In this document: in pieces, positions 29,383 to 47,959 of the stretch
How positions within the stretch are numbered: position 1 is the first letter of the stretch
Layout: every line of letters starts with the position of its first letter
Origin: a virus
Length of the DNA: 64,000 bases
Strand: one strand, 5' to 3'
Virus record (IMG/VR): IMGVR_UViG_3300031951_000076
Coordinates: 24,671 to 88,670 of that record
Position numbers and translations under genes: made by a program
The notes under the pieces: generated by a model
Database searches by the model: none
What the model was told of the DNA's origin: nothing
What the model saw: only the letters and a program-made list of their open reading frames with translations

Positions 29383-29420
29383 AAAAAAATATAGCCCCAA
29401 CGTAGACACGCCAGGGCTGT
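29383..29420 (-). terminator. Rho-independent terminator after the glycosyltransferase cluster
   Basis: Minus strand AGCCCTGGCGT-GTCT-ACGTTGGGGCT hairpin followed by a T-run. Confidence 0.7.
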
Positions 29421-29453: not shown

Positions 29454-30773
29454 TTATTCAAAAGATATATCAAAAAAGTTACCTCTTTGTTTTATATCAT
29501 CTGTGTTAATTCCTTTGTAATTTAAAAAAGGAATAACATCTATATAAAACTGTTCTTGATCTTCTTTCCAACCTGGGTGAAAAGAAATATGCATTGGTAC
29601 ATTTAAATCCCAAAGAACTGATTTTTCTTTCAGCAGTTCTTGTTCATGACCTTCAACATCTATTTTTATAACAGAGATATTACTTTCAGATAGGTTATAT
29701 TTTTCTAAAATTTCTTTAATTGAAATACAATCAACTGATATTAAATTTTCTGTAGCTGAATCTCTTGTAATACTTTCCCCTAAAACAGCAGAACCTAATT
29801 GTAATTTAGTTTTTGTAGAAACAGCTTTGTCTTCTAAAATAATATTTGATATATTATTTAATTTAATATTTTCTACAAACTCTGCATGAGCAACTGGATC
29901 AGGTTCAAAACATATACAGTTCTTTGAATATTTTGAAGCTACTAATGATATAGGACCTATCCACGATCCTATATCTATAAATGTTTTATTTTTATCAAGT
30001 TTTGGAACAATAAAATCAAAGGTTGATTGTTCCCACCAAGAATAATGATCTAACCAAAATTTTGTTGTAACTGGTGTATTTTGTACATTAAATTCCAAAC
30101 CACCTTTATTTACCTTATGACTCATATTAATAGTTGATTTTAATTTGGTTCCCCAACATGATATACTTGATGCTGCAGTGTTTAAATAATATTTCCATTC
30201 ATCTGTAATATTTTCATCTGTTAAATACCACGGTGTGTGTTTTATACAATATGGTTTATCTAATCTTAAGGCATCATATGCAAAACCAGAAAATGGTCTA
30301 TATAAAGCAAATGTTGTATCAATATGAGCATCCCATCCAATATCTTTTCTGTTTATCCAATACTTACTTTCCCATTCTCTTGCTTGCCTTCCTATTTCTG
30401 TTTCAGGTAAATCACTTATATCTAATGAAAATCCAACTTTAAAAACATCAGTGTTTTCTAAAACATTAATCATTTTATCAAGCCAATCATTTGGAACGTC
30501 ATCATACAAGCAATCTGAATCAGCTATTATAAAATAGTTATCGTTAAAGTAAGGTCTTAATTGATCACCCCATACAGAATGGGGACCATTATTTTGACTA
30601 GAATAAACAACAGTTACACCTGAGTTATTATAATATTCTAATAATGGAGGATATGTAGATTGCTGATCAAAAATTACAATCTCAATTCTTGGTTCTTTTA
30701 AAAGAAAGTTAACAGCGTTTTTTAAAGAACTAATGAGATTTCTATTGACAATAAATGCTTTAATCTTTTTCAA
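29454..30773 (-). CDS. GT-A (GT2-like) glycosyltransferase fused to FkbM-family SAM-dependent methyltransferase
   Basis: N-half: IVNRN, FDQQSTYPPLLEYY, ADSD (DxD), AHIDTTFALY. C-half: FIDIGSWIG, CFEPDP, IKIDVEGHE (FkbM signatures). Confidence 0.85.
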   Translation of the reverse strand: MKKIKAFIVNRNLISSLKNAVNFLLKEPRIEIVIFDQQSTYPPLLEYYNNSGVTVVYSSQNNGPHSVWGDQLRPYFNDNYFIIADSDCLYDDVPNDWLDKMINVLENTDVFKVGFSLDISDLPETEIGRQAREWESKYWINRKDIGWDAHIDTTFALYRPFSGFAYDALRLDKPYCIKHTPWYLTDENITDEWKYYLNTAASSISCWGTKLKSTINMSHKVNKGGLEFNVQNTPVTTKFWLDHYSWWEQSTFDFIVPKLDKNKTFIDIGSWIGPISLVASKYSKNCICFEPDPVAHAEFVENIKLNNISNIILEDKAVSTKTKLQLGSAVLGESITRDSATENLISVDCISIKEILEKYNLSESNISVIKIDVEGHEQELLKEKSVLWDLNVPMHISFHPGWKEDQEQFYIDVIPFLNYKGINTDDIKQRGNFFDISFE

Positions 30774-31509
30774 GAAAATCTTTTAAAAGTTGTTTATAAT
30801 CTTGTTCCCAATGTGGGTTCAAATATACATCACCTGTAGGAACATAACCTAACTTACGCATGTATTCAACATGTTCACTATGTCTTTGTATCACATTTGG
30901 TCTGTCACTAGTATCTGTACCTGCACCACTCATATGATAACTTCTACCTCCCCACATATAAAACCAACTCACTTCATTGTCTGGTGGAGCAGCAAATACA
31001 ACATTTTGTGAATTATATCGAATATTCATTACAAATGTCATATCATATCCTGCATTCTCATGTGGATGTTTTCCAAGATTTTCCCAAATTCTTTTACTAT
31101 AAACAATGCCTGAATTACCTAATCCTGTAATATCAGTAATTGCTTTATTGTTAAAGAAAACTCCACGATGCCAGTGTAAAAGATCTGTATCTTCTTTAAA
31201 ATACTTTGCAATATTTGTTAGATGATTTGGAAGTGCAACATCGTCATCGTCCCAAACTGCAATTATATTAGATGAACATTGACTTACAGCAAAGTTTTCT
31301 TTTTCACCAATTGTTTGAAATGTGTAATCTAAATTATAAATTTTTATTTCAGGATGGTCAAAGATTAATTTTTGTAAAGGGTAATCGTTTACAATAATCA
31401 TTTCTTTTTTACCAGGATAGTCTTGATTAATAAAAGAATAAATACTTTCTTCTAATAAATCCACTCTACCATACGTTATACATTTTGCAGATATAAAAGG
31501 ATAATTCAT
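30760..31509 (-). CDS. Glycosyltransferase family 2
   Basis: CITYGR...SFINQDY...IIVND and VWDDDD (DxD) GT2 pattern. Confidence 0.85.
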   Translation of the reverse strand: MNYPFISAKCITYGRVDLLEESIYSFINQDYPGKKEMIIVNDYPLQKLIFDHPEIKIYNLDYTFQTIGEKENFAVSQCSSNIIAVWDDDDVALPNHLTNIAKYFKEDTDLLHWHRGVFFNNKAITDITGLGNSGIVYSKRIWENLGKHPHENAGYDMTFVMNIRYNSQNVVFAAPPDNEVSWFYMWGGRSYHMSGAGTDTSDRPNVIQRHSEHVEYMRKLGYVPTGDVYLNPHWEQDYKQLLKDFLEKD

Positions 31510-32432
31510 ATAAGCGCTGATGTTTTAGAAGTGTTAATAATTTCTTCAGCATACTTATATGAACAAAAATCTTTATTAAGATTTTGAATTTCTATATCAT
31601 ATGGTAATACTAATTGATACTTGCCTTTAAAAAATAAATCAGTTCTGTCAGAAGTTACACCTGCATTATGAAATATAGGATGTTTATCCCATTCACTAAC
31701 TGGAGATGTAGCCCAAGAAAAAGAAAGTTTATTAGTTACTAATACTTGCTTATCCCAAAACCAAAGATTCCAAAGAACTGCCCACATATCAGCACACCAA
31801 ATTTGTAGTTCATGATATGAAGGATCTAATGCTTTATCTTTATCAATTTCATGTGTAATTAATCTAAAAAGATTTTCAGCATCATAATATACTTTTTTCC
31901 AAAACTCTGCAGGAATTCCTTTTAAAATATATTGTGCTCCACCACTATTTTTTTCTTGCTCAATAATGTATTGTTTATTAACATTAACTATATCAGCCAT
32001 AAAATCAAGATACTTTTCACCTTTAGATCTAACATAGTTTGCACCAATATAACTTACAGTATCGCTTACATAACAATTATCATCTTCAAGAAGTCCTTTA
32101 AAATCTAATGGTTTTGCAAAAATAATATCGCAGTCATGATAGAAAATAGTTTCATGTTCTAATTCAGGATGCTGCAACCAATGCTTGTACAAAACATGGG
32201 GACGTATACTGGATATATAACAAGGTTTTTGCCTGTTATCTGGATAAAAATAAAATCTCGTATCAGTGTATTTTGCTGCAAGTTTTTGCCATTTTTCAGA
32301 AACATGTCCATGGTGCCCACATACAATTTGAATATCTTTTGGATCTACACCATTTCTAACAAAGTTATTAATCATAACTTCTACTTGCCATGTATAATAA
32401 TCTATGGCAGGTTGTACGCATAAAAATTTCAT
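31506..32432 (-). CDS. Putative peptide O-glycosyltransferase (HPAT/SGT1, GT95/GT96-like GT-A fold)
   Basis: YYTWQVEVM, YISSIRPHVLYKHW, YHDCDIIF (DxD), GGAQY, WCADMWAV, IFHNAG parallel in order the conserved blocks of plant HPAT/SGT1 as I recall them. Confidence 0.6.
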   Translation of the reverse strand: MKFLCVQPAIDYYTWQVEVMINNFVRNGVDPKDIQIVCGHHGHVSEKWQKLAAKYTDTRFYFYPDNRQKPCYISSIRPHVLYKHWLQHPELEHETIFYHDCDIIFAKPLDFKGLLEDDNCYVSDTVSYIGANYVRSKGEKYLDFMADIVNVNKQYIIEQEKNSGGAQYILKGIPAEFWKKVYYDAENLFRLITHEIDKDKALDPSYHELQIWCADMWAVLWNLWFWDKQVLVTNKLSFSWATSPVSEWDKHPIFHNAGVTSDRTDLFFKGKYQLVLPYDIEIQNLNKDFCSYKYAEEIINTSKTSALI

Positions 32433-32449
32433 AAATGTTGGTTTTTTTA

Positions 32450-32457
32450 CAAATATA
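32450..32457 (-). promoter_or_regulatory. Candidate Bacteroidota sigma-A -7 element (TATATTTG) upstream of the GT cluster
   Basis: Matches TAnnTTTG 18 nt upstream of the 32432 start; short motif in AT-rich DNA. Confidence 0.4.
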
Positions 32458-32466
32458 TTAAATAAA

Positions 32467-34935
32467 TTAACAATATCCTATTGCTTGTACAAATGATGTT
32501 CCTCCAAAAATACCACCTTGAAAACATACAGTATTACCAGGCGCAAGTGAAAAGTTATTTGACCAGTTAACACAATAATCTGACCAACCACTTACACTTA
32601 CAAAAAAAGTAGATGTATTTAAATATTCAACAGATGGTGCAACTACATATGTAGGAGAAGTGCTAGTAGAACCATCTGTAAAAAATACTCTTAATCTGAT
32701 TTCAAAAAATGTTGCAACTGGAGGAGTAGCATAAAGACTAAGTATATTACATATATTTAAAAAACCAGATTGTACATTAGTTGCAGCAGGACTGCTTTGT
32801 GTCCAACTTAACCAATTTTGTTGTCTATGATCTAGAAATACAGCGCTAACACATTTACAATTATCACCTAAAAGACCCCATAGAATTGTTTGATTACAAC
32901 CACTTCCCCCAAAAGGTGCTGATGTAACAGTTGCTATTGTAGCGCCTGGATAACAAGTTCCACCTGGATTTCCTGAAATAAAAGGTGTGCAAGTATTTGT
33001 ACCTGAAACACATGCGGGTGCAATTGTTGTAGTGCTGGTAGAAGTAGTTGTTGGTGGACCTGTCACCACAAAACTATTAGATGCAGGACAAATTCCACTT
33101 ACACTCACAATTCTTAACTGAACAAGAGATCCTATTGGTATTTGAAAAGGTAACACAGTTGATGAAGATAAACAACCTGTACCTCCTACCACATTATTCC
33201 AAGGAGTCCAAGATGTACCTGTACCACTTGTATCAGCTCTAAATTGAACTTGAGAACATGTGTTACAACCTACTGTTGGAATTGTGTAATTTATTTGAAC
33301 AGTTTGACTACCCGTGCCACCACCTGATATTGAACGAGCATCAGTAATTGTTGGAGAACAGCATATTGGAGGAGCTAACGTAGTAGTTGTACTAGTTGAT
33401 GTTGTGCTAGTAGTCGAAGTGGTAGTCGAAGTGGTTGTAGTAGATGTAGAAGTTGTTGTTGTAGTTGGATTACATACCCCTCGATTTAATGCTTTAAAAC
33501 CATAAGGATCAGGAAGATTGCTATTAGGTACATTTACCCATAAATTAGATACACAACTTAAAATACAACTAGCTGGGTAAGGACCAGCTAAGGGACTATA
33601 AGCTACAATAGCTGATGGTGCAAATGGAGGTGTTAAAGATGTGTTAGTTGCATAAGCAACAACCCACGCACCTCCTGGCAGATAAGTAGAACTATTATCC
33701 CAATATATGTATAGTACTTCAGGATCTGGTGGATCAACAATAAATTTATACCACACCTTACCATTTACGAGTGTTGTCTCAGGGAATAAACTTTGTTCAA
33801 TATTACCAAAGTTTTCTGAAAATGCATAAAAACAAATATTTTCTGGACATTTTCCTAACGCACTACTGCATACTGCAGGTGTTAATGCATTATTACAATC
33901 AGGAGTCCATTGATTAGTTGAACTACTTATAGGTAAAGCGTTACCACCATTATCAAGTGTTTGAAAAATTGAACCTGCTCCTAAACCATCTATATCCCAA
34001 ACCCATTTATTAATAGAAGGTAGCCAATAAACAGCTAAACTAGTTGCATAACCATACCACACTTTACCATTATATAAAACTGGTGATGTACCGATTGGTA
34101 AATCTTCATAACCTAGACCACCTTGTTCTGCTGCAACTATAAAACACATTGTTGGATCAATAGTAGTTGTAGTTGTTGTGGAACTAGTTGTTGTGGAGCT
34201 TGTTGTAGTGCTTGTGCTACTTGTTGTTGATGTTGATGTAGTAGTACTTGTTGTTGAAGTACTAGTAGATGTAGTAGTACTAGTTGTTGAAGTAGTAGTT
34301 GTAGTGGGGCAATTTTCTAAAAGTGAAGAATCTATAAACCCTACACTTGTTCCACCAACTACTTGTGGTGTCCATAATGGAGGATTTATACCATTAGTAA
34401 CTGGATATTGTGCTGTTGATGGAAGTGTTTGAATTATTCCACCAAATGATGAATCTTCATGAACCCACTGTGTACCATCATAATACACTCTTCTTAATGG
34501 AGAATTGTCAAAAACATATTGAGGTTTACCATTTATTTGAGAAGCATTACCGCCTGATGATAATTGTATATTATAAAAACAAGCATTACCTACACATTCT
34601 ATATATAAATTAAAACATATATTAGGAAATACAGTAGTTGTGGTCGTAGTAGAAGATGTTGTAGTTGTTGAAGAAGTTGTACTACTTGTGGTGGTGCTAG
34701 TTGATGTACTGGTAGTAGTAGTTGGTAAAATAATTGGTATATTACAACTACTAGTATTTGACGTAGCTATTAAAGCTATTACACCTGGTGATACATCAAC
34801 TAGCATGCCTGCTAACAAATCTGCTGTATTTACAACAGATGGGTTAACAGTACCGCCAGCAGGTATTGTAGATAAAGTCATCGTTGGACCAAATCCAGAA
34901 CCAAGAGGACCATTTATTTGTACAAATACAAACAT
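32467..34935 (-). CDS. Mucin-like Thr/Ser-rich modular virion surface/fibre protein (822 aa)
   Basis: Shared ~70 aa N-terminal domain, four poly-T/S tracts, three NGK(x)WY-type repeats, FN3-like C-terminal domains. Confidence 0.75.
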   Translation of the reverse strand: MFVFVQINGPLGSGFGPTMTLSTIPAGGTVNPSVVNTADLLAGMLVDVSPGVIALIATSNTSSCNIPIILPTTTTSTSTSTTTSSTTSSTTTTSSTTTTTTVFPNICFNLYIECVGNACFYNIQLSSGGNASQINGKPQYVFDNSPLRRVYYDGTQWVHEDSSFGGIIQTLPSTAQYPVTNGINPPLWTPQVVGGTSVGFIDSSLLENCPTTTTTSTTSTTTSTSTSTTSTTTSTSTTSSTSTTTSSTTTSSTTTTTTIDPTMCFIVAAEQGGLGYEDLPIGTSPVLYNGKVWYGYATSLAVYWLPSINKWVWDIDGLGAGSIFQTLDNGGNALPISSSTNQWTPDCNNALTPAVCSSALGKCPENICFYAFSENFGNIEQSLFPETTLVNGKVWYKFIVDPPDPEVLYIYWDNSSTYLPGGAWVVAYATNTSLTPPFAPSAIVAYSPLAGPYPASCILSCVSNLWVNVPNSNLPDPYGFKALNRGVCNPTTTTTSTSTTTTSTTTSTTSTTSTSTTTTLAPPICCSPTITDARSISGGGTGSQTVQINYTIPTVGCNTCSQVQFRADTSGTGTSWTPWNNVVGGTGCLSSSTVLPFQIPIGSLVQLRIVSVSGICPASNSFVVTGPPTTTSTSTTTIAPACVSGTNTCTPFISGNPGGTCYPGATIATVTSAPFGGSGCNQTILWGLLGDNCKCVSAVFLDHRQQNWLSWTQSSPAATNVQSGFLNICNILSLYATPPVATFFEIRLRVFFTDGSTSTSPTYVVAPSVEYLNTSTFFVSVSGWSDYCVNWSNNFSLAPGNTVCFQGGIFGGTSFVQAIGYC

Positions 34936-34947
34936 ACTTTATATAAA

Positions 34948-35580
34948 TTAAGAAATCTTCTTAACAAAAATTCTAGTTGGTGTATTATTAGCATCTGAAG
35001 GGAATGGTGACTGTGCACTTGGGTTCATACAAACACTATAATAACCAGCAGCTGTTACTTCAAGTATAAGTGTAGCATTAATTATCTGATCAGCAGCTGC
35101 AGCTTCAACTGATTTATAATCATTCAAAAGAGTAATTGAACTCATTGCTCCACCTGATGTAGTAGAAGAAGATACTCTTACAAGGATATCAACATTACTA
35201 GTAAAATCAAAAAAGTGAATTTGAGTAGTTATCTCATAAATACCAGGTTGCTTAAAATGAATACGAGCTCCTTGGTTAGCATTAGTTCCAGCTACAGATC
35301 CAGAATTAACAAGCTCAAACACATCTGTATTTGTGTTAAATAGTACACTGTTCCATGGAATGTAGTTATCTATTCCATTTGTCATATTACCATATTGAGC
35401 ACTTGTAGGATAAGCTCCTCCTGATCCAGGGTTAACCCAGCTAAATCCAGCTGAAGGAGTTGTGAAGTTCTCTTTTTTCACCCTGTAGGTGGTTGCTCCT
35501 GTACTGTCATTCATTACAATTTCAGCACCCTGCGTGTTCCCAGTAAATAAAGGAAGAGCAGAAATTTTTACGTTAGGCAT
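34948..35580 (-). CDS. Short tail fibre/spike with KISxLP N-terminus and C1q/BclA-like C-terminal head
   Basis: MPNVKISALP N-terminus; RIHFKQPGIYEITTQIHF beta-sandwich pattern. Confidence 0.6.
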   Translation of the reverse strand: MPNVKISALPLFTGNTQGAEIVMNDSTGATTYRVKKENFTTPSAGFSWVNPGSGGAYPTSAQYGNMTNGIDNYIPWNSVLFNTNTDVFELVNSGSVAGTNANQGARIHFKQPGIYEITTQIHFFDFTSNVDILVRVSSSTTSGGAMSSITLLNDYKSVEAAAADQIINATLILEVTAAGYYSVCMNPSAQSPFPSDANNTPTRIFVKKIS

Positions 35581-35619
35581 AGTTTTTAAAATTTAAAAGT
35601 TAAAATATTTAGGGTTATA

Positions 35620-35627
35620 CAAATATA
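35620..35627 (-). promoter_or_regulatory. Candidate Bacteroidota -7 promoter element (TATATTTG)
   Basis: TAnnTTTG match in the intergenic gap upstream of 35580. Confidence 0.35.
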
Positions 35628-35634
35628 ATATAAT

Positions 35635-38600
35635 CTATTGTTCTGTTATTAACAAATCATTGTTTTCAGCTTGAAGCTCATCATTTAATTCAGTTGATAT
35701 AAAGTTACTAGGATCTGCAGTGGTAGTAGTTGTAGTACTAGTAGAAGTTGTACTTGTTGTAGTTGGAGTCGTACAAGTACCATCAATATATTCAATTTCA
35801 ACAGCATCTGTACTTGAAATTGTTAAAGATGATGTTGTATAATTTCCAGTACCTATAACATCTATACACTCAACTATAACACTGTTAATTTTAATATTAA
35901 GTTTTGATGTAGGTGCAGCTGTTCCTATATTAATAGTCAAAGCACCAACATAACCACCATGAACACCTTCTGCAGTTTGACCATTTGTAACAGGTAAACT
36001 ACCTACTGTTATAATATACCAAGAAGGTGTAATATTATCTAAACTAGATCCTGCAGATGTATTATTAGTTACAAACAAACTTCCAGAAGGTAATGTTGTT
36101 GTGGTTGTAGTACTAGTTGTTGTGGTCGTACTAGTTGAGGTAGTCGTTGTTGTAGTAGGTTCCTCTGTAGTAGTTGTTGTTGTACTAGTTGTAGACGTTG
36201 TTGATGTCGTAGTAGTAGTAGGCTCTTCTGTAGTCGTAGTTGTAGTACTTGTTGTGGTCGGTTCTTCAGTTGTCGTAGTAGTTGTTGAAGTAGTTGTAGT
36301 TGTGCTTGTGGTAGTTGTAGGACATATTGATTGCTCTATAACTAAATCTTCATCATTCTCAGCAGTTATGGAATCATCTCCTTCACTTGCTAACAAACAT
36401 AAAGTAGCAGGATCTATTGTAGTAGTTGTAGTTGTACTGGTTGTAGAAGTAGTGGTAGTGGTTGGCTCCTCTGTAGTAGTAGTGGTCGTACTAGTTGAAG
36501 TAGTCGTAGTTGTAGGTTCCTCTGTGGTTGTAGTAGTTGTAGAAGTTGTACTAGTAGTAGGTTCTTCCGTAGTCGTAGTTGTAGTACTGCTACTAGTAGT
36601 AGTTGTGGTAGGTTCTTCTGTTGTAGTTGTTGTAGTAGAAGATGTTGTTGTACTGCTAGTAGTAGTAGTTGTTGGTGCACAAGACTGACAATCGTTAGGG
36701 AAACCTGATAGCAAACATCCAACTTCACATGGGGTAGTTGTTATATCCCCAGTTATATTAATTGGTGTTCCAGCAAGAACACAAGCTGTTATAGTGATGT
36801 TTGTTCCTATTATACCAATAGTATCTGGAGTTCCGTTACATTGTATATAATCTATATTTCCTCCTACTGTAGGGCCTGAAGTAAAGCTATAGCAGAAGCA
36901 ACAAGACTCAGCTACAATATTATCATCATTCTCAGCTGTTATAGGATCATCACTTTCAGTAGATATGAAACACAATGTAGCTGGATCTAACGTGGTAGTA
37001 GTCGTAGTGCTTGACGTTGTGGTAGTACTAGTTGAAGTTGTAGTAGTGGTGGGTTCTTCAGTTGTTGTAGTTGTAGTTGTCGGCTCCTCAGTAGTAGTAG
37101 TAGTGGTTGTAGGTTCCTCAGTAGTAGTAGTAGTGGTAGTACTTGTACTTGTTGTAGTAGTCGAAGTAGTAGTTGTACAAGTTGTTACAAAACTTTTTGC
37201 TCTTACATTTCCTAAAGAATCTGTAAATGCTATCCAATAAGTTCCTACAGCAACACCTCCTTGTGAATATACTACAGATGTACCAACTGTCCAACTAGTA
37301 TTAGATAATGCTGCAGCTTCACTTGTAAACCAAAAATTACCAAAAGCATAACCTGTGCCTGAACCTCCTGTTGGGTTATTTGCTGTAACCTCAATTGATT
37401 GAGTTGCAGCATTTACGCATACTACAGATACTATATCAAAGTCTAATGGACAAGGTGATTGTTCTATAGCTAAATTATCATCATTTTCCCCTGTTATAGG
37501 ATCATTCCCTTCTGTAGCTATCAAACAAAATGTAGCAGGATCTAATGTTGTACTAGTTGTTGTCGTTGTTGTGCTAGTGGTACTAGTTGTAGTAGTAGAC
37601 GTTGTAGGTTCTTCAGTTGTTGTGGTCGTTGTAGTACTTGATGTTGTTGTTGTCGTAGGTTCTTCTGTGGTTGTCGTAGTTGTACTAGTACTTGTTGTAG
37701 TAGACGTTGTAGTGGTGCTTGTGCTACTTGTAGTTGTAGTTGTACTAGTAGTAGTTGTCCCAGGACTATCACATAATAAACCAAATGCAAAGTTAGTTCT
37801 GTATTCACTATATGTAGCCTGAATCTGAATTTGTGTATGTGTTCCGGGAAACTGTACAATACCATAACCTTCATTACCAGATATAGTGTAACTATTAGAT
37901 CCAAATACTACACCGCTGTCTCCCACTGTAAGGTCTGTTGGTGTAACAGCACAAGGTCCAGCAGCATTAAATCCACATCCAGGAAGTTCAATAAATGGTA
38001 CATTAGGTTTAAACAACTGCTGTGTTACAGGGCTACCCAAAGACCATATACCAAGAATAGGATCAGCAATTGGTGATGAGAAATTAAAGGTGATTGTCAC
38101 TATTCCAGCAATATTACCTTTAATATAGTATGAATTACCACTTGGTGCAACATTACCATAACTTGTACAAGTAATACCATTAGTACATTGTACAGGTTCA
38201 ACACCTGTGGGATTAAGAGGATCAAATCCATCACCAGGACCTGCAGGACCATTGGTAGACATTGTGATACCAATTATACCTTGTTTAGCAGTATTTATAG
38301 ATCCTTCAGTATAATTATCACCAACATTCTGCCATACAATTTGACAAAGTGTAGTAGTAGTTGTTGTTACAGGACATTCTTCAGTTCTAAGTTGATCATC
38401 ATTTTCTGCTGTAATTGGTTCATCAGCTTCAGTAGCAAGTAAACAAATATTGTTTGGATCTTCAGTAGTAGTAGTTGTAGTAGAAGATGTAGTAGAAGAT
38501 GTTGTAGAAGATGTTGTAGGGATTGTACCTGTACCACCACCATTGCTACAAGGATCTTCTGTAGTTGTAGTTGTAGTGGATGTTGTTGTAGTAGTAGACG

Positions 38601-39435: not shown

Positions 39436-39442
39436 TATTAAA

Positions 39443-39760: not shown

Positions 39761-39773
39761 AATTTTTTATTTT

Positions 39774-42700
39774 TTAAGGTACAGGATCTTGACAGGTTTC
39801 ACCTAAAGGATCGCACATTTTAGAAAAAACTGATTTTATACCAGTACCAGTAGCAGGATTAAGGCCAAATTGAACACATCTCCTATACTTTGTATTAGCA
39901 TCAGTAAAAGTTAAATTTTCAATTGTAGGAAGAAACTCACAATTTGAATATGAAACAGTTCCTGTAAAAGGAAATGCTAATGCACCGCTTGCTTCAAATG
40001 TAATACACATACACGATAAATCAACTGAATTACAATCTTGACCAGTAGCAATATTACCATATGACATTTTGTTACAAGCGTTAGTTCCTGTTACGCATTC
40101 CCATGAAGATCCAATTGGATAATCAAGATTTTGACCAGTATAGCTAAGTAAAAAGGCATATAATGTTCCAACAGGATCGTTCAAATCACTAACAATTTCC
40201 CATCTGGCAAGTCCTATATTCCAATAAATATATAGAGAAATTTGTGAAATACTTGGTGATGGGAATGTAGGTGTTTGTACAACATAATAAGCTTTTCCAT
40301 TTATATTTCCTTGTGGTGTTGCTTCACTATCATATACAGAATACTCTGTAGCACCATCTATTCCACCAATAAAGTTTACACATATACCACTGCATCCATA
40401 AACTGTTACAGGAGGATTGCCACCAGTTGATTCTGCAAAACATGTACCTAAGTTAAGAACATACTTTGGTGATATGCCAGAAACATTAGTTGCAGTAACA
40501 TCTTGTAATGAAGAGGTACAAACATTAACATAACTTACTGGATTAGTTGATGCTTCTGCAAAAGTAATAACTTGAGTTACACCTTCACAATCTGGATAAG
40601 TTACTTGAGCAGCAAAACCACCTTGGATTTGATAATCTATATTTAAACAATTACAACAACTGCCTATATTACTTGAAACAACAAAACCACCACCACCAGT
40701 TATATTATTTACATTTACCCAATCTAATGATGTTCCATTTGGTGCTGGAACAACACCATTATTAAAAGGTACATTTAAGTATGCTGCTAACGTACCATTT
40801 ATAGCATTAATTCTAATTTCCCAACGAGTTCCAGACCATACTAAATAACCAGTATTTGCCGTATTATTAATACTAGTAAATCGAAATACTGGTTGATTAT
40901 TAACAATATCTATTGTTGTAGAAGATTGAGATGAATAACCATTTGCACCTCCAACAGTTTCAAGACTTGTAACTAAACAAGCTGATTGACACAGTAATTC
41001 ATTATAACTAGTAACTTTTAAAAATAATGTTGAACTACCAAAAGGTGCCACAGGCTGCTCAACCCATGCTGTTTCTGGTGGAGTTAATCCAACACCAACT
41101 GTTGAATTTGTAGCTGTAATAAAACCAATAGCTACAGGAGGTGTTACGACAGGTACTGCAGTTTGTGCTGCTACCCATTGAGTACCATTATAATAAACAG
41201 TAAAATGATATGTTGTTACACCTAAAGTATCTGTACCAGAATACCAATATTTACCATTATATAAACCATTATTAGTCAAATCAAAATTAAAACCAATTGC
41301 TTCAGCATTCCATGATGAACAAAGCGGTACTCTTGGACAAGATGGATTATTAAAATCAAGAGGTGCTGCTAAAGCAAGCGTCCCACTACCATATGGAAGT
41401 TCACCAGTTACAGTCCAATTATTTGTTGTTGGAGGATATATGCCTACACCAGCATCAGTATTTGTGGAAATTTGATTACTTGTTGGAATTGGAAATACAG
41501 GTGGATTAATTGTATGTGCTGCTATCCACGTTGTACCATCATAATATACAGTAAGATATGAGTTATCTGGTGCAAACATTGTATTTGTTTTTGGTGTTGT
41601 GTACCAAGCTTTACCATTATAAATTCCACCAAATTGCATTTGAACTTGACCATTGCCAACAGGTGTTGCTTCATTACCCCACTCAGCACACAATGTAGGT
41701 TGTATTGTAGTGGTCGTTGTAGTTGATGTGGTTGACGTAGTAGAACTAGTTGTGCTTGTAGTGCTACTAGTTGTTGTTGTGGTTGGAGGACATGATATAC
41801 GATTGTTACAAAGTTCAGTTGTACTAGCTGAAACACCATTTGGTAATGGTGTTCTAAACATAGTTGCACACACACGTGTACCATTAGAAACAGATACAAC
41901 TTTATCAAGATATGTAATACAATCTACAACAGTAACATTTACAGGTGAACCTAAAGAAGATATAAATGTATAACATCTACAAGGTAAATTTAAGGTTGTA
42001 GTTGTTGTAGTGCTTGTAGATGAAGTAGTACTGGTACTTGTGGAAGTGGTTGTACTACTTGTTGTAGTACTTGTAGTAGATGTACTGGTAGTGCTAGTAG
42101 TAGTTGTTGTTGGTACTGGACAAGCTGTATTATTAACACATGGTATAATAGATGAAATAAGTTGTGACGTTGCACCATTATTATCTGAAGTACCGACAAA
42201 TCCACTTCTTGCACATATAGCAGCTACATTTCTAGAAATAGTTAATGTCTGAGATATACCGCTACAATCATCCCAAAATATATCTGTACTAGAACCAATA
42301 GGTCCATTTGAAATAACTGAATAACAATAACATGGAATTGTAGTGGTTGTTGTTGTACTAGATGTAGAAGTAGTTGAAGATGATGTAGATGTCGTTGAAC
42401 TACTCGTAGTAGTCGATGTAGATGTTGTTGTAGAACTACTAGTTGTTGTGGTACTTGTAGAAGTGGTAGTCGTAGAACTTGTAGTTGTAAACTGTGGTTT
42501 TGGTGTAGTTGTGGTAGTAGTTGAACTAGTACTTGTAGAAGATGTGGTTGTACTACTAGTAGTTGATGTACTACTTGTTGATGTAGTTGTTGAAGTGGTT
42601 GTACTAGTTGTAGGACAAGGTGTAACATCACAAAGAGGTCCAGGTGTAGAAATAACAATAGGACCGCATGCATCAATTGCTGTTACTGAAATTGCACAAA

Positions 42701-43979
42701 CTATGTGTTGTTGATTTGGTCCAATATAAATCCCCCATACAAGATTACCATTTCTATCTATATATGAATAATACCCACCATTAGGGCCACCATCAATTGT
42801 AAAACAATAAGGAGGAGGTAAAGTGGTTGTTGTCGTTGTACTTGTGGTGGTAGTTGTTGATGTTGTCGTAGTTGTTGTAGTTGTACCAAGAGATGTGTTA
42901 GTACATTCAGGTAATGAAGATGCACCATCAATTTTAAAAGATACACTACCAGCAGGAGGAACAATTACACCATAAGGAGGAAAATGTTGAAATTCATAAA
43001 TGTTACCATCTTTATTACCTAAGTAAATTTTACCCTGTGCTTGAAATACACCAAAAGGAAAATCTACAATACCTGTTACATTAACCGTTTCTTCAAGCGT
43101 TCCTGTTGCGTAATCATACTGATATACAAACTTTTGATTTGTTACAATATCAAAAGTGGTAACTATAAACTTACCGTTAGATGTTAATAAAAAGTCACCT
43201 GATATTTGATCATTAATATCTAATTGAAAACCTGGAATAAAAGTATTCGTAGTTAAATCATATTCCCCAACAGTAGAAAAACCACCCACTGATAAAATAG
43301 TATTTACTACAAGAAGTCTTGTATTATTTATAGCCCAAAGACCATCAGATGAATTAAATCCTACAGGCCATGTGTAAGTAGCTACAGGATTTATAGAAGA
43401 TGTAAAAGGATTAATTGTAATATTCCATTCTACAAATTGTCGCGTTACTAAATTTATTAACCAAAGTTTTGTACTCGTATGAGCTACGTCAGGTGAGTTA
43501 GGACCAAACTGTATATTTAAAAGAGTACTTGTATTAGTTATTACATTATATTGATAAACTTGTGAACCAGAGTTTAATATAACTAAACAAGGATCAGCAG
43601 TTGTAGTGGTGGTCGTAGAAGTAGTTGTTGTTGTAGATGTAGAAGTAGAAGTACTTGTTGTAGTTGTAGGTAATGGACAAATTGTAGTAGTAGTAGTAGT
43701 TGTAGAAGTAGACGTAGTACTAGTTGTTGTAGTACTTGTAGTGGTGGTCGATGTTGCACAACTTACGTTTACAAAAAACGGTTGATTCCATGTATCTTGA
43801 GATACAATTTTAACAACAGTGGTACCATTAGGAACTAAAACATTATATCCAGCTGGTTGAAATGCTGATAAAGGAATATTTGTAATAAAAGGAATTGCGT
43901 AACCATCTGCATTTGTATATAAATCAAATGGTCCACTACCTGGTGATACGTTAAGTGATATGTTTATTAAAAATGACAT
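39774..43979 (-). CDS. Mucin-like Thr/Ser-rich modular surface/fibre protein (1401 aa)
   Basis: Shared N-terminal domain, beta-propeller-like region, about six poly-T/S tracts, small Cys modules, four NGK/NNQ-type repeats. Confidence 0.8.
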   Translation of the reverse strand: MSFLINISLNVSPGSGPFDLYTNADGYAIPFITNIPLSAFQPAGYNVLVPNGTTVVKIVSQDTWNQPFFVNVSCATSTTTTSTTTTSTTSTSTTTTTTTICPLPTTTTSTSTSTSTTTTTSTTTTTTADPCLVILNSGSQVYQYNVITNTSTLLNIQFGPNSPDVAHTSTKLWLINLVTRQFVEWNITINPFTSSINPVATYTWPVGFNSSDGLWAINNTRLLVVNTILSVGGFSTVGEYDLTTNTFIPGFQLDINDQISGDFLLTSNGKFIVTTFDIVTNQKFVYQYDYATGTLEETVNVTGIVDFPFGVFQAQGKIYLGNKDGNIYEFQHFPPYGVIVPPAGSVSFKIDGASSLPECTNTSLGTTTTTTTTSTTTTTSTTTTTTLPPPYCFTIDGGPNGGYYSYIDRNGNLVWGIYIGPNQQHIVCAISVTAIDACGPIVISTPGPLCDVTPCPTTSTTTSTTTSTSSTSTTSSTTTSSTSTSSTTTTTTPKPQFTTTSSTTTTSTSTTTTSSSTTTSTSTTTSSSTTSTSSSTTSTSSTTTTTTIPCYCYSVISNGPIGSSTDIFWDDCSGISQTLTISRNVAAICARSGFVGTSDNNGATSQLISSIIPCVNNTACPVPTTTTTSTTSTSTTSTTTSSTTTSTSTSTTSSTSTTTTTTLNLPCRCYTFISSLGSPVNVTVVDCITYLDKVVSVSNGTRVCATMFRTPLPNGVSASTTELCNNRISCPPTTTTTSSTTSTTSSTTSTTSTTTTTTIQPTLCAEWGNEATPVGNGQVQMQFGGIYNGKAWYTTPKTNTMFAPDNSYLTVYYDGTTWIAAHTINPPVFPIPTSNQISTNTDAGVGIYPPTTNNWTVTGELPYGSGTLALAAPLDFNNPSCPRVPLCSSWNAEAIGFNFDLTNNGLYNGKYWYSGTDTLGVTTYHFTVYYNGTQWVAAQTAVPVVTPPVAIGFITATNSTVGVGLTPPETAWVEQPVAPFGSSTLFLKVTSYNELLCQSACLVTSLETVGGANGYSSQSSTTIDIVNNQPVFRFTSINNTANTGYLVWSGTRWEIRINAINGTLAAYLNVPFNNGVVPAPNGTSLDWVNVNNITGGGGFVVSSNIGSCCNCLNIDYQIQGGFAAQVTYPDCEGVTQVITFAEASTNPVSYVNVCTSSLQDVTATNVSGISPKYVLNLGTCFAESTGGNPPVTVYGCSGICVNFIGGIDGATEYSVYDSEATPQGNINGKAYYVVQTPTFPSPSISQISLYIYWNIGLARWEIVSDLNDPVGTLYAFLLSYTGQNLDYPIGSSWECVTGTNACNKMSYGNIATGQDCNSVDLSCMCITFEASGALAFPFTGTVSYSNCEFLPTIENLTFTDANTKYRRCVQFGLNPATGTGIKSVFSKMCDPLGETCQDPVP

Positions 43980-43982
43980 TTT

Positions 43983-44903
43983 TTAACATATATTTATTCG
44001 AGCTACACTATTTCCTGTAACACATGAATTAAATAGTACAGTTCCTGTTGGTGAAGTTATTCTAAGCCAGTTTATATTAGAGTGTGGTATATTATTACCA
44101 CATACAGCATTATACGTTGTCATCGCAGCTGGAATAGAAATATTAATAGTTGTAGATCCAGGTGTAATTGTTGCTGCAACAGCTAATGCCTGCGCTTGCG
44201 ACAGAACAGTTTTACTATATCTTGAATATCGATTCCACGTTGCTGATGGATTTAAAGCAGTTGGTATATTATTATAATCTCTACATATATTTCTTCCAGA
44301 AAGTGATAAAGCACCACCTGTACCAAAATCATTATTTAAAAGAATATCTCCAAGATAAACACCATTGCCATAAATTTCAAACATTGCTTGATTACACACA
44401 TGATCACCAATATCACCCATACAAGGATGTGTATAACCAGCTGGTAATAATTGCAACTCATTAAAATCATGTATATATATACCTTCTATTATCAGACCAT
44501 TTAAACAATTTACTACAGGTCTTACTGTTGTAGTTGTAGTTGTTGATGTTGATGTAGAGGTAGATGTTGATGTAGAGGTAGATGTCGTACTAGTAGTTGA
44601 GGAAGTACTAGTTGTTGTTGGTAATCTAGTAGTAGTAGTAGTTGTTGTACTCGTAGTTGTCGTACTAGTAGTAGTTGTTGTTGTTGGAGGTATATTAACA
44701 ATTATACTATTTGTACATTTACCATTTGATCTAATTTTTACACTTGTTGTAAAATCAGGTACATTCACAGTTACTCCAGATGTAAGATTTGCTTTTGAAA
44801 TATTAATACCATAAGCAACGATATATCCATCCACATTTGAATAAATCATAAATGGACCTGTATCACCACCTGCTGTATTTAATTTTACAAAAATAGCTTG
44901 CAT
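43983..44903 (-). CDS. Thr/Ser-rich surface protein (306 aa)
   Basis: Shared N-terminal domain (AGGDTGPF), long T/S linker, C-terminal Cys-containing domain. Confidence 0.75.
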   Translation of the reverse strand: MQAIFVKLNTAGGDTGPFMIYSNVDGYIVAYGINISKANLTSGVTVNVPDFTTSVKIRSNGKCTNSIIVNIPPTTTTTTSTTTTSTTTTTTTRLPTTTSTSSTTSTTSTSTSTSTSTSTSTTTTTTVRPVVNCLNGLIIEGIYIHDFNELQLLPAGYTHPCMGDIGDHVCNQAMFEIYGNGVYLGDILLNNDFGTGGALSLSGRNICRDYNNIPTALNPSATWNRYSRYSKTVLSQAQALAVAATITPGSTTINISIPAAMTTYNAVCGNNIPHSNINWLRITSPTGTVLFNSCVTGNSVARINIC

Positions 44904-44904
44904 C

Positions 44905-46062
44905 TTAACTTATATTTTTACAAACATTGAAACCTGTTATTTTATAAACAACACTAGGGCTTGCTGGTATATTCTGAGGATTTTGAAAAATGTTAACACC
45001 ATTAACAATTAATGTTTCTATACGCATTCTAGGTGCAGCACCAGGTGCATTAATTAATACAAAATCACTAATGGCATTAGCAGGAAGATTAATATTAAAA
45101 TTATATTGATCTAACAAAGTTGTACAATTTGTATCAGAATATCTTTTTGCAACACCTGTAATAGTAAGTGCTACTGGATTAATTCCTAATGACTTAAACA
45201 CCTCAATTCCTATAAAACCATCAAAATTTGTTGGTGAAATAATAAATGTAGCCACTGAAGGATCAAATACTGTTGTTGTAGTTGTTGTACTTGATGTAGT
45301 TGTTGGTGGTGGTATACATGATTCATTTGACTGCTGTTGTGAAGAACCAGCTGCACATGCTTTACCAAGAGGTGTCACAGTAACAAAAGATGTATTAACA
45401 GATATTGTATTTGTTCTAGCACAATAGTATTTTGTTGAATTTCCACTTATGTTTTCTGTGTAACTAAAATTATTACAACCATCATAAGATATTCCTTGAG
45501 TATTTGCTGAATTATTTTTAACACTATAACATTGACAACGTAACGTAGTTGTTGTAGTAGTAGTTGATGTTGATGTTGTAGATGTTGTTGTAGTACTTGT
45601 AGTACTTGTAGACGTAGTCGTTGTTGTTGGAGCAGGAGTACAACAAATATTTGTATCATTATATGAACCAGGACCTACAGATTGTGTAATAGGTTTAGTA
45701 GCATCAATACATCTTGTAACAGTTATATTACGAATTGTTAAAGAACTAGGTGTTATTCTTCCACATTGATAAAAAGTAAATGTAGTTGGTGTTACACCGC
45801 CTGTAAATGTAAAGTTTCTACAAGGACATTTAGTTGTTGGTACAGTTAATAAAACTTCATCACATTTTTTTCCAGAATTAGATTGAACACTTACTTTAGC
45901 TGTTGCATTTGGAACAATCATGTAATAACCAGATTGCAATTGTAGTTTAGTAACAGTTGATGGCCATATAGTAGGATTGTTTAAATTATCATAAAGTATA
46001 ATACTATAAGGACCTGTATCAGGTCCTGAATTGTTTAATGTTAAAGCTATAGTTTTTGACAT
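44905..46062 (-). CDS. Thr/Ser-rich surface protein (385 aa)
   Basis: Shared N-terminal domain (SGPDTGPY), two small Cys modules, two T/S tracts. Confidence 0.75.
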   Translation of the reverse strand: MSKTIALTLNNSGPDTGPYSIILYDNLNNPTIWPSTVTKLQLQSGYYMIVPNATAKVSVQSNSGKKCDEVLLTVPTTKCPCRNFTFTGGVTPTTFTFYQCGRITPSSLTIRNITVTRCIDATKPITQSVGPGSYNDTNICCTPAPTTTTTSTSTTSTTTTSTTSTSTTTTTTTLRCQCYSVKNNSANTQGISYDGCNNFSYTENISGNSTKYYCARTNTISVNTSFVTVTPLGKACAAGSSQQQSNESCIPPPTTTSSTTTTTTVFDPSVATFIISPTNFDGFIGIEVFKSLGINPVALTITGVAKRYSDTNCTTLLDQYNFNINLPANAISDFVLINAPGAAPRMRIETLIVNGVNIFQNPQNIPASPSVVYKITGFNVCKNIS

Positions 46063-46069
46063 TAATAAT

Positions 46070-46351
46070 TTAATTAATCGACACTAAATCAATTGAAATT
46101 TGTAATAAACAACAGTCATCTTTAGGAAATGCTTTTGGTAGTATTTTATCAAAAAACAAATCACAAAGAGATTCACCTTTTTTTATATCGTAACAATCTT
46201 CATCTTTACCTGAATATTTTACACAACAAAGATCTATTACATCTTCACACTGTTCTTTTGGATTACAATCAGGAAGACATTGTACACCTGGTGGTGTACA
46301 TTGTAAACAAGGTTCACAATTTGGATCAGATGTATTACAATTACAAGCCAT
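46070..46351 (-). CDS. Small Cys-rich protein
   Basis: CVKYSGKDEDCYDIKKG motif shared with neighbours. Confidence 0.7.
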   Translation of the reverse strand: MACNCNTSDPNCEPCLQCTPPGVQCLPDCNPKEQCEDVIDLCCVKYSGKDEDCYDIKKGESLCDLFFDKILPKAFPKDDCCLLQISIDLVSIN

Positions 46352-46384
46352 AGTTAATTAATTATTCAGATACGGCACTATCTC

Positions 46385-47959
46385 CTAAACACATATTGAT
46401 TGTAAATTTAATGTACCTCCTGTTGCAGGAACAACAACATCATTAATATAATAATACGCTAAAGGAACATTACAAGAACAACCTAGTGATTGATCAGGTG
46501 TTGTTGTGTTATATGAAAATTCATACGGAACTCCTTCACAATCAACAAATGATACAAATATTTTACCATTGTAACCAGGAACTGTATTACCTGATGCGTT
46601 ACCTAAATCTGTTGAAGAAGGTGTAACAGTCCATTCATAACAAGGTCCACAAGTAGTAGTAGTGGTAGTAGTACTGGTAGTAGTAGTACTAGTAGTTGTT
46701 GAAGTGGTCGTTGTGCTTGTTGTTGTTGACGTGCTGGTTGTTGTTGTTGTTACAGGTTGTATAACTTGTACAATTTGTTTACTACATGTTTTACCATCTT
46801 TTATAATGCAACCATTCACTGTAACTGTATATGGTAAATTTGGATTCAAAGAAGATGTACTTACATCATATGTTACACCAATAGGATTTGTAGATTCAAC
46901 AACTAAATCTAATGTTGTAGTGTAAGTGTGACCATTTCCATCAGTAATAGAAACAGTAGATAATGTAGGACAATTTGCAAAACCAGATGGAATTACAGTA
47001 CCACTATTAAAAATTAAAGTAACTAAATTTCCTGCTGTATTTCTTGTAGCTTGATATACTAAAAAGAAAGCAGAACAATCCACAGAGCAACATGTTTTTA
47101 AATCATATATTGCTGATCTTATATCACAAACAGTAAGCCATAAATTTTGAAAAGACTGCGCTAAATTAGCAGGACTAATTGTCCACCCAGGAATAGATGC
47201 CATTGTCCCAGTTTGACTTAAAGCATTTTGTGAACTTAATAAATTACATTGTGCAGTTGTAGCAAGACCTATATCTGATGGAGTACCAAGTGAACTAGTA
47301 AAAACACATAGTTGCTGATCAAGTAAACCTAAAAGAATATCCATTTGAATAGGTACACCTTGTGTAGCTATACTATATGAACAAAAAGGTGTAACAAGTG
47401 GTGGAACATAACCTGGGTCATTCTCAAGACTAGTAACCCTTGTTTGTAAATCTAAAATTTGTAACTTTTGTAAATTAATTTGTTCATTAAGAGAACAAAC
47501 TTTATTTGCAACAAGAACTGCATATTCACTTAACTTAAGACTTGTAACAATTAAACCAGTAGACGGATCAACATACCATAAACATTCAGGAAGAGGAAGT
47601 GTAGGTTCAGAATACTCTCTATCAATTACTTCTGCTAAACTACTTGATGTATTAAAAGAAACTTTACCCACACAACAAATGGCATTTGTTAAAAGCTGTA
47701 TAACATTTTCTAACTTTTTATCTGTAGGTATTTTTAATGTACTGCACGCATCAACAAGACAATCAAAATCAACATCTGATAAATCAAGTGCTTCTTTTAC
47801 TTTACATAGCTCATCTGCAAGTTTATATACTACATCAGAAACAGTATCACCTTTACAAAGATTGATACATTTAAGATCAGGGCCCTGCCATATCACACAA
47901 TTTGATGATATAGGTGAGCAATTTTCTTTATCAGAATTTGAATGATACGGTGTCATCAA
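46385..47959 (-). CDS. Cys-rich coiled-coil fibre-like protein with C-terminal Thr tract
   Basis: CVIWQGPDLKC motif, heptad segment (LNEQINLQKLQILDLQTRVTSLE), poly-Thr near the C-terminus. Confidence 0.75.
   Translation of the reverse strand: MMTPYHSNSDKENCSPISSNCVIWQGPDLKCINLCKGDTVSDVVYKLADELCKVKEALDLSDVDFDCLVDACSTLKIPTDKKLENVIQLLTNAICCVGKVSFNTSSSLAEVIDREYSEPTLPLPECLWYVDPSTGLIVTSLKLSEYAVLVANKVCSLNEQINLQKLQILDLQTRVTSLENDPGYVPPLVTPFCSYSIATQGVPIQMDILLGLLDQQLCVFTSSLGTPSDIGLATTAQCNLLSSQNALSQTGTMASIPGWTISPANLAQSFQNLWLTVCDIRSAIYDLKTCCSVDCSAFFLVYQATRNTAGNLVTLIFNSGTVIPSGFANCPTLSTVSITDGNGHTYTTTLDLVVESTNPIGVTYDVSTSSLNPNLPYTVTVNGCIIKDGKTCSKQIVQVIQPVTTTTTSTSTTTSTTTTSTTTSTTTTSTTTTTTTCGPCYEWTVTPSSTDLGNASGNTVPGYNGKIFVSFVDCEGVPYEFSYNTTTPDQSLGCSCNVPLAYYYINDVVVPATGGTLNLQSICV

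Follow-up and report, generated by a model that had tools for sequence, protein, structure and literature searches.

A candidate phage-encoded O-glycosylation system for Thr/Ser-rich fibre-like proteins in an uncultured crAss-like phage

To our knowledge, experimental demonstrations of virion glycosylation are limited to a few actinobacteriophages. The glycosyltransferases (GTs) of mycobacteriophages such as Che8, Corndog and Myrna, often together with methyltransferases, are reported to modify the phages' own capsid and tail proteins, with a proposed role in shielding the surface (Freeman et al. 2023, as cited in PMC12363180 and PMC13313380). Here we describe a 64-kb stretch of DNA (bases 24671–88670 of the 88.7-kb linear IMG/VR record IMGVR_UViG_3300031951_000076, an uncultured virus judged 74% complete; hereafter the window) in which seven genes for fibre- or appendage-like proteins carry long Thr/Ser tracts and are followed by a cassette of three enzyme genes, the first of which encodes a 308-residue protein with a predicted GT fold, the core enzyme. 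We propose, with a probability of about two in three, that these genes form a phage-encoded cytoplasmic protein O-glycosylation system in which the core enzyme would initiate, GT2 domains would extend and an FkbM domain would methylate the glycans of mucin-like stalks. As in the mycobacteriophages, the enzyme genes lie in the genome of the phage and not in that of the host. Unlike the capsid and tail-tube sites of the mycobacteriophages, the candidate acceptor here is a long, repeated poly-Thr/Ser linker, present up to 21 times in one protein, and the enzyme gene is physically coupled to the acceptor gene. The hosts differ as well, being probably Bacteroidota here and, for cultured members of the enzyme family, Firmicutes; for the 308-residue protein, no sequence relation to the mycobacteriophage GTs (Che8 gp110, Corndog gp38) was detected, and no Mycobacterium phage was found among the 77 cultured records with a homologue (tblastn).

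Several cellular and viral systems share parts of this design. The serine-rich-repeat protein (SRRP) pathway of Gram-positive bacteria, in which GtfA/GtfB and then GT8/GT2 enzymes such as GlyE and GlyD act on PsrP, Fap1 and GspB, is likewise a cytoplasmic O-glycosylation of long Ser/Thr-rich regions of fibre-like adhesins, carried out by stepwise GT-A enzymes that are encoded beside the substrate gene, and the pneumococcal enzyme GlyE itself resembles the core enzyme in structure (Z 12.3). Initiation in that pathway is performed by a GT-B (GT4) pair, GtfA/B, that adds GlcNAc; since there is no GtfA/B-type enzyme here, the first step would fall to a GT-A enzyme. The substrates also differ, as those described here are Thr-dominated and Pro-bounded, and the present system is viral and requires no accessory Sec export. 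Eukaryotic mucin-type glycosylation by the GT27 ppGalNAc-transferases resembles our proposal in its dense, Pro-flanked Thr/Ser acceptors, in its retaining GT-A initiator with a DxD motif, and in the stiff bottle-brush linker between folded modules that would be the expected product; it differs in taking place in the Golgi instead of the cytoplasm, and a Pfam search found neither a GT27 nor a lectin domain here. The plant enzymes HPAT (GT95) and SGT1 (GT96) act, as is proposed here, on repeat proteins rich in hydroxy-amino acids, although kinship of the core enzyme with HPAT is a remote lead. In the chlorovirus PBCV-1, A64R (Z 10.9 to the core enzyme) and its partners provide virus-encoded, cytoplasmic GT-A and methyltransferase activities that glycosylate a virion protein independently of the host, as the phage enzymes would. 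PBCV-1, a eukaryotic virus, carries its glycans N-linked on Asn residues of its major capsid protein, and that system, unlike the present one, has no poly-Thr acceptors.

The core enzyme and its pairing with Thr/Ser tracts

The core enzyme is encoded at positions 31506–32432 on the minus strand, which carries the genes throughout the window. It belongs to phrog_4417, a family of unknown function (E 1.4e-75, with residues 1–301 aligned to positions 1–291 of the 293 in the profile), and gave no match to Pfam (E ≤ 0.1) or NCBIfam. The family is large, comprising 2,652 clusters at 90% identity and 852 representatives at 50% identity, and no Pfam domain was seen among the 120 of the 2,652 clusters that were listed. 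D102 and H255 are present in every sequence of a 47-member alignment (35–86% identical to the 308-residue enzyme), and conservation of D100 is at least 90%; the DxD motif lies in YHDCDIIF, after the strand at 95–99, and the sequence conservation makes D100, D102 and H255 candidate metal ligands.

An AlphaFold2 model of the enzyme (predicted local distance difference test, pLDDT, 97.4) retrieved GT-A folds in Foldseek with a probability of 1.00 and E down to 1.6e-7. The model thereby places the protein in the GT-A fold, as a single Rossmann-like alpha/beta/alpha domain, in line with the glycosyltransferase type that a preliminary description, made from the letters of the window, had given to this first enzyme. 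The top matches in VIA-align were glycogenin, LgtC, the catalytic domain of UGGT, the Skp1 alpha-galactosyltransferase AgtA and WbbM (Z 14.0–14.5, root-mean-square deviation 3.5–4.0 Å over 215–243 residues), with GlyE and A64R as further neighbours. As modelled, the core enzyme is closest to retaining enzymes of the GT8/GT24 type, which are Leloir sugar transferases, and with its GT-A fold, DxD motif and GT8/GT24 likeness it probably retains configuration and depends on a metal. This likeness is one of fold, as membership of CAZy GT8 was not found by sequence (no Pfam match at E ≤ 0.1, and none at E ≤ 1 in the alignment search). The GT95/96-like label given in the preliminary description could not be kept: a direct hmmscan of the protein was negative for HPAT (E ≤ 0.1), its nearest fold is GT8/GT24, and neither HPAT (PF23452) nor DUF7164 (PF23741) had a match in the record at E ≤ 10, the last being a weak negative because control genomes were negative too. 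Faint leads towards HPAT are two of the 47 family members at E 0.09 and a neighbouring phage cluster in a language-model Atlas in which 10% of members carry Pfam HPAT; no solved GT95 or GT96 structure was among the fold-search matches.

The evidence that most directly ties this family to the tracts comes from other phages. We collected 80 IMG/VR loci with a homologue of the core enzyme (46–84% identity) and 10-kb flanks, and defined tracts as Thr-majority runs matching [ST]{8,} in open reading frames (ORFs) of at least 60 residues. Tracts were present at 74 of the 80 loci, nearly always on the strand of the enzyme, and three of the six loci without them end close to the enzyme gene. After dereplication at 70% identity to 27 clusters, a tract lay within 2 kb upstream on the same strand in 24 of the 27 and downstream in one of 26 (Fisher p = 9e-11), so that the co-occurrence of GT cassette and poly-Thr genes on which the proposal had been staked was indeed found. 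With the downstream flank as internal background, the occupancy of tracts per kb was 0.70–0.76 in two upstream bins against 0–0.08 in all ten downstream bins.

The same pairing extends to cultured phages, where 77 of 50,697 records contain a homologue by tblastn, at 33–39% identity over the full length and with a Chryseobacterium phage as the best match. Enzyme and tracts were paired in all eight of the phages inspected, whose hosts are Enterococcus (two phages), Lactobacillus, Lactococcus, Clostridium, Arcanobacterium, Mammaliicoccus and Chryseobacterium; in six of them the major tail protein ends in a tract, two have tracts on the capsid protein and three on portal or protease proteins, and small adjacent proteins carry them as well. 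In Chryseobacterium phage MA9V-3 tracts of the same grammar as in the window are found in the two genes directly upstream of the enzyme gene. Enterococcus phage phiFL1A has them at the C-termini of the capsid and major tail proteins, with the enzyme gene right after that of the major tail protein, and Lactobacillus phage iLp84 has them at the same two termini and in a small protein with four T-runs. Enterococcus phage nattely and Lactococcus phage bIL285 carry them at the C-terminus of the major tail protein (ORFs identified by position and not by annotation), while in Arcanobacterium phage TPWB06, Clostridium phage FA88 and Mammaliicoccus phage F1 they are distributed over the major tail protein, the protease/portal and small enzyme-adjacent proteins. 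The major tail protein also provides an informative contrast. Homologues of phiFL1A gp50 (47–60% identity) in the Streptococcus prophages Javan47, Javan505 and Javan311 and in Lactobacillus phage phiJL-1 end in ...PGETTGDYDNITK or a similar sequence (a conserved ...PGETTGDY... motif) with no T-run, and at the equivalent position these four genomes have no enzyme gene; the poly-Thr tail and the enzyme were thus acquired, or lost, together.

Within the crAss-like lineage of the window the same association is seen between close relatives, whose major capsid proteins are 81–98% identical and of which 30 enzyme-negative ones were tested. Tracts were counted at the DNA level with the pattern WCNx8, which stands for [ST]8 and replaced ACNx8, as the latter was too insensitive (three matches in the window's own genome and none in an enzyme-positive relative). 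All 11 enzyme-positive records, that of the window included, contain tracts (6–146 matches), while the seven enzyme-negative relatives that are at least 77% complete, three of them complete with terminal repeats, have 0–1. The complete enzyme-negative genome G046 keeps the gene order and has Cys-rich fibre-like genes, including a 457-residue homologue of the 524-residue protein of the window, and a scan at the protein level found no [ST] tract of eight or more residues in the 39.5 kb scanned. Among homologues of the 524-residue protein, T-runs at the junction between the conserved N-terminal part of about 400 residues and the variable distal module are confined to enzyme-positive genomes and are missing at this junction in the enzyme-negative G046 and G049; the enzyme-positive G073 has no T-run at this junction either.

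Tract-bearing proteins and the enzyme cassette

The window belongs to a crAss-like phage, as the preliminary description had supposed: a Pfam search matched Crass_capsid at 110.7 bits for the major capsid protein (55592–57211, minus strand) and CrAss_Ring_2 at 83.5 bits for ring protein 2 (26805–27482, minus strand), each against a cut-off of 27, while CrAss_Ring_1 at 24.2 bits stayed under its cut-off of 27. The head genes and the ring genes are separated by nine genes (47959–32467) that form a block, and seven of the nine bear tracts. The claims first made for these genes, namely more than 20 long poly-Thr/Ser tracts in seven genes, separating Cys-rich folded modules, agree with what we counted. 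Runs of at least six Ser/Thr residues number 38 and make up 826 residues, or 17%, of the 4,809 residues encoded by the seven genes; 35 of the runs reach at least eight residues and the longest spans 50. Elsewhere in the window there is no run of eight or more and just three of 6–7 residues, one of these inside the 210-residue gene. The tracts follow a consistent grammar, P - T3-6 - S/T mix - T5-7 - x(1-2) - P, with a Pro at most three residues before the tract in 31 of 35, a pure T5-7 run at its end in 32 of 35, and a Pro at most four residues after it in 34 of 35. Their codons are mixed (ACA, ACT, ACC and ACG with AGT and TCN) and repetition of the DNA is imperfect, which argues that the tracts are selected coding sequence and not simple products of slippage. 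GC skew is positive (up to +0.21) only over the Thr-rich genes, at 32000–44000, and negative elsewhere in the window; this is the footprint of ACN-rich coding on the minus strand and no replication signal.

The tracts set apart about 30 modules, most of them rich in Cys. The Cys content of the seven tract genes ranges from 2.6 to 17%, and that of the tract-less 93-residue gene in the block is 15%, while in other genes it is mostly at or below 2.7%, except for a 193-residue gene at 48341–48922 with 5.7%; the 210-residue gene inside the block is Cys-poor (0.5%). Such a high Cys content of the modules would fit proteins that function outside the cell. The proteins are further related through two kinds of N-terminal domain. 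A type-A domain of about 70 residues is common to the 1401-, 306- and 385-residue proteins and, by eye, the 822-residue protein, and a Cys-rich type-B domain is common to the 93-, 105- and 1266-residue proteins and, by eye, the 524-residue protein. The two domain types may be shared adaptors for attachment to the virion, with distal parts that can be exchanged.

In the order of transcription, the 524-residue fibre-like protein (46385–47959) comes first, with its lineage-conserved Cys-rich N-terminal part of about 400 residues followed by a single Thr/Ser tract of 33 residues (404–436) and a Cys-rich distal module of 88 residues. It is followed by the 93-residue type-B protein (46070–46351), by the 385-residue type-A protein (44905–46062) with two tracts of 28 and 11 residues among Cys-containing modules, and by the 306-residue type-A protein (43983–44903) with two tracts of 19 and 31 residues and a C-terminal module of 180 residues. 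The largest product, the 1401-residue type-A protein (39774–43979), has small Cys-rich modules separated by seven tracts of 21–50 residues and ends in a C-terminal region of 643 residues. Two type-B proteins come next, one of 105 residues (39443–39760) with 17% Cys and one T9 tract, the other of 1266 residues (35635–39435) with 31% Thr and 21 tracts, many of them built as T-run/EEP units. This last protein also contains an acidic repeat of about 30 residues, present four times by BLAST (55–68% identity) with a fifth, degenerate copy at the C-terminus recognized by eye; its consensus is roughly L-x-T-E-x-x-D-x-I-T-x-E-N-D-D-x-L, and each copy stands just after a T-run ending in x-D-P. The 210-residue protein (34948–35580), which is embedded in the block and lacks long tracts, has no family match in Pfam, PHROG or NCBIfam. 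The block closes with the 822-residue protein (32467–34935), directly upstream of the core enzyme, in which four tracts of 9–48 residues lie between Cys-rich modules. All nine genes are on the minus strand.

The cassette itself consists, as first described, of three overlapping genes on the same strand closed by a terminator, and the GT2 and GT plus FkbM labels given to the second and third are upheld by profile scores above cut-off. The core enzyme gene (32432–31506) overlaps the start of the second gene (31509–30760) by 4 nt at its stop codon, and the second overlaps the third (30773–29454) by 14 nt. The second gene encodes a 249-residue GT2 protein (PF00535 at 43.8 bits against a cut-off of 23.3, acidic motif WDDDD), a putative glycan-extending enzyme whose best NCBIfam similarities, far under the cut-offs, are to HpsN, PglI and WcaA. 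The third encodes a bifunctional protein of 439 residues that may both extend the glycan and cap it by O-methylation: its N-terminus is a GT2 domain (PF00535 at 32.1 against 23.3 bits, motif ADSDC), its C-terminus is an FkbM-family methyltransferase dependent on S-adenosylmethionine (TIGR01444 at 78.7 against 37.7 bits, PF05050 at 34.6 against 22.7 bits), and it also matches phrog_8156, annotated as a methyltransferase, at E 4e-20. Comparison of the three enzymes by sequence with PDB entries produced no useful match. A terminator-like hairpin with a T-run (29393–29418, minus strand; 11-bp stem with six GC pairs) lies 36 nt past the last stop codon.

Beyond it, after the cassette and before the genes for the ring proteins, the structural operon contains a 405-residue gene for a calcineurin-like phosphoesterase or 'DNA repair exonuclease' (28120–29337, minus strand; phrog_704, E 3e-51); its position is kept in all relatives examined (49–88% identity), an odd site for a nuclease-like gene. 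The close relatives in IMG/VR number at least 596, and the 80 that were retained have major capsid proteins of 81–96% identity. The nearest cultured relative by this protein is the cyanophage Leptolyngbya phage Lbo-JY46, which is 29% identical across 99% of the protein, and gut crAss-like capsid proteins are more distant, at only 22–24%. In the fibre region of G046 a 527-residue protein (L284, 18388–19971) has repeats that by eye are SprB-like (TNGQTTATATGL...Y.C.VTD) and are joined without Thr linkers; these repeats hint at a Bacteroidota host.

Variable partner enzymes and the proposed pathway

The core enzyme is constant at these loci and its partners vary. Among 20 cluster representatives, the ORF that overlaps the stop codon of the core enzyme gene is a GT in nine (GT6 in three, GT2 in three, GT32-like in two and GT25 in one), a methyltransferase in three, a radical SAM/SPASM protein in two and a protein with no Pfam match in six. 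The family domain is also found fused to GT6, GT2, Gly_transf_sug (GT32-like), GT7C, methyltransferase and radical SAM/SPASM domains. Where a radical SAM/SPASM protein takes the place of a second GT, whether adjacent or fused (L159, 10891–11964; L101, 10906–11952; protein P0139), it may modify the sugar or the peptide.

Partner exchange is also visible between close relatives when the crAss-like cassettes are compared from the core enzyme to the conserved 405-residue phosphoesterase-like gene. The arrangement of the window, GT2 followed by GT2-FkbM, recurs in G076 and G077; G071, with a capsid protein 98% identical, has GT6, a protein of unknown type and FkbM; G072 has GT6, a methyltransferase and a GT2-like protein; G079 has a methyltransferase and a protein of unknown type; and G080 has a methyltransferase and GT2. 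There appears to be an order rule, in which the core enzyme comes first and is followed by a second sugar enzyme and a methyltransferase, the latter two turning over fast. The sequence of initiation, extension and methylation first suggested for the window is therefore supported in so far as a partner GT, methyltransferase or radical SAM protein recurs in 14 of 20 clusters, but the part of it in which enzymes 2 and 3 share one glycan is less secure. That these two act on the same glycan is plausible from their translational coupling and the recurrent logic of the cassettes, and stands below the role of the core enzyme in confidence. Among records with a homologue of the 249-residue GT2 the core enzyme is present somewhere in 15 of 29, and in six of the seven that are at least 77% complete. 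In another phage group, six loci (L310, L319, L322, L329, L330 and L332) have a homologue of the 249-residue GT2 (62–66% identity) on the opposite strand 3–6 kb from a diverged core enzyme (30–34% identity) with T-runs beside the latter, so that the GT2 and core families travel together even when they are not adjacent.

The pathway we propose would run as follows. The Pro-bounded Thr/Ser tracts, 35 linkers between about 30 small modules of the seven fibre- or appendage-like proteins, would serve as acceptor tags for the enzymes encoded immediately downstream in the same operon. In the cytoplasm, the core enzyme would transfer the first sugar from a host nucleotide-sugar onto the Thr/Ser hydroxyls of the tracts; host donors would be used because the families for sugar-nucleotide synthesis (Epimerase, NTP_transferase) are absent from the 74%-complete record. 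Extension of the glycan may then be the task of the second enzyme, the GT2 that is translationally coupled to the first, and of the GT2 domain in the third, and the FkbM domain may O-methylate it, probably at the terminal sugar. The product would be a dense, mucin-like glycan brush that turns the linkers into stiff stalks between the Cys-rich appendage modules, and such a brush would extend them, protect them from proteases and alter the surface chemistry of the appendage.

Competing explanations and significance

The same loci could be explained without glycosylated tracts. The tracts may simply be flexible linkers that stay unmodified, like those of many multi-domain proteins secreted by Bacteroidota, with the enzymes acting on host surface polysaccharide or lipopolysaccharide, for superinfection exclusion or receptor masking, or on phage DNA. 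GT2 and FkbM families are indeed typical of polysaccharide biosynthesis, and the sub-threshold NCBIfam similarities of the 249-residue GT2 named above point the same way; its homologues mostly lie away from any core enzyme or tract, and the core family is missing from most of the phage records sampled for long ACN runs. We nevertheless consider this explanation unlikely, as an enzyme of polysaccharide or DNA would not be expected to sit next to tract-bearing genes with such strict polarity in 24 of 27 clusters, as a major tail protein that is otherwise conserved gained its acceptor tail along with the enzyme, and as enzyme-negative sister genomes lack tracts despite having the same fibre-like genes. 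By eye, moreover, the three enzymes show no membrane-spanning segment, and the thymidylate-synthase-type hydroxymethylase family is absent from the 74%-complete record, which counts against DNA as the target of glycosylation.

If the core enzyme does modify the tracts, it could do so with a group other than an O-glycan, such as a phosphosugar or a nucleotide-derived group, or in a step like those that mature ribosomally synthesized and post-translationally modified peptides, with radical SAM partners and with the GT2 and FkbM proteins as passengers. This is brought to mind by its GT-A relatives at Z 9–10, which include GlcNAc-1-phosphotransferases, the phosphotransferase CpsY and nucleotidyltransferases, and by the radical SAM/SPASM domains that several lineages have fused to the core domain or encode next to it. 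We regard it as quite improbable, however, since the top structural matches at Z 14 stand clearly above the rest and are all Leloir retaining enzymes of the GT8/GT24 type, most partners are ordinary glycosyltransferases (GT6, GT2, GT25, GT32-like), and the window itself has no radical SAM gene. Enzymes of the host might instead glycosylate the tracts, leaving those of the phage to tailor the sugars or to be irrelevant. Bacteroidota have a general protein O-glycosylation system, which is periplasmic and recognizes the motif D(S/T)(A/I/L/V/M/T), and the SprB-like repeats in relatives, together with the Chryseobacterium phage as the best cultured match, hint at a host of that phylum. Such a division of labour seems very improbable, because phage structural proteins fold and assemble in the cytoplasm, the tracts lack that motif, and the same pairing occurs in phages of Firmicutes and Actinobacteria, which have no such system.

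Phage-encoded O-glycosylation of the tracts accordingly remains the reading we prefer, and several observations weigh against it. Nucleotidyl- and phosphosugar transferases do occur among the GT-A neighbours at Z 9–10. In a reverse test, 40 IMG/VR records chosen because they have an ACNx12 run were searched and only three had the core family, and the three further loci listed lie on contigs already known to contain the family; poly-Thr thus reaches beyond this family, and a general dependence of phage poly-Thr on the core enzyme was rejected. The enzyme-positive relatives fall into two clades on a tree of major capsid proteins, so that covariation within the lineage amounts to only one or two events; counting it as many independent events was rejected, and the statistical weight is carried by the cross-phage data. 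Homologues of the 249-residue GT2 adjoin the core enzyme in just three of 45 loci, and beyond two contigs no viral relative of GT2-FkbM was confirmed in IMG/VR, which makes the roles of enzymes 2 and 3 weaker. The Thr-rich proteins have no match in PHROG or Pfam save a sub-threshold 'Mucin' match of composition, and the AlphaFold2 model of the 524-residue protein is poor (mean pLDDT 52, from a nine-sequence alignment), so that a virion location for these proteins is argued from their context. In the literature searched on phage glycosylation and on Thr-rich virion proteins we found no description of the family or of poly-Thr acceptor tails in phages.

Taken across phages, the sequence comparisons nonetheless make a strong case for a recurrent phage system, of which the present locus would be an unusually large instance. 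What is new here is the scale, the grammar of the tracts, the sister genomes with and without the enzyme, and the contrast between major tail proteins. A broader view, which we offer tentatively and at somewhat short of even odds, is that a poly-Thr tract and a phrog_4417-type enzyme make up a portable 'tag-and-transferase' module that has been grafted repeatedly onto capsid, tail-tube, portal and fibre proteins in phages of at least three phyla, in which exchange of partners would give near-identical phages different glycan 'serotypes', and which is scaled up to an appendage coat in the window; virion glycosylation would then be widespread.

Should the family prove to be a poly-Thr O-glycosyltransferase, sugar-coated particles would be predicted for hundreds of phage lineages, as it spans phages of Enterococcus, Lactococcus, Lactobacillus and Mammaliicoccus, with dairy and therapy phages among them, as well as a crAss-like group that is abundant in the environment. 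The stability and adsorption of such phages, their recognition by the immune system and their pharmacokinetics would all be affected by a coat of this kind, and biotechnology would gain, in a Pro-bounded T-run with one soluble enzyme, a compact glycosylation tag that can be genetically encoded. Cultured members are at hand in tractable hosts, with prophage bIL285 in L. lactis IL1403 and with phages phiFL1A and VPE25 in E. faecalis V583, and the crAss-like lineage offers natural sister genomes with and without the enzyme. If the module is as portable as we tentatively suggest, virion glycosylation would be less a curiosity of mycobacteriophages than a diversifying layer of phage surface biology.

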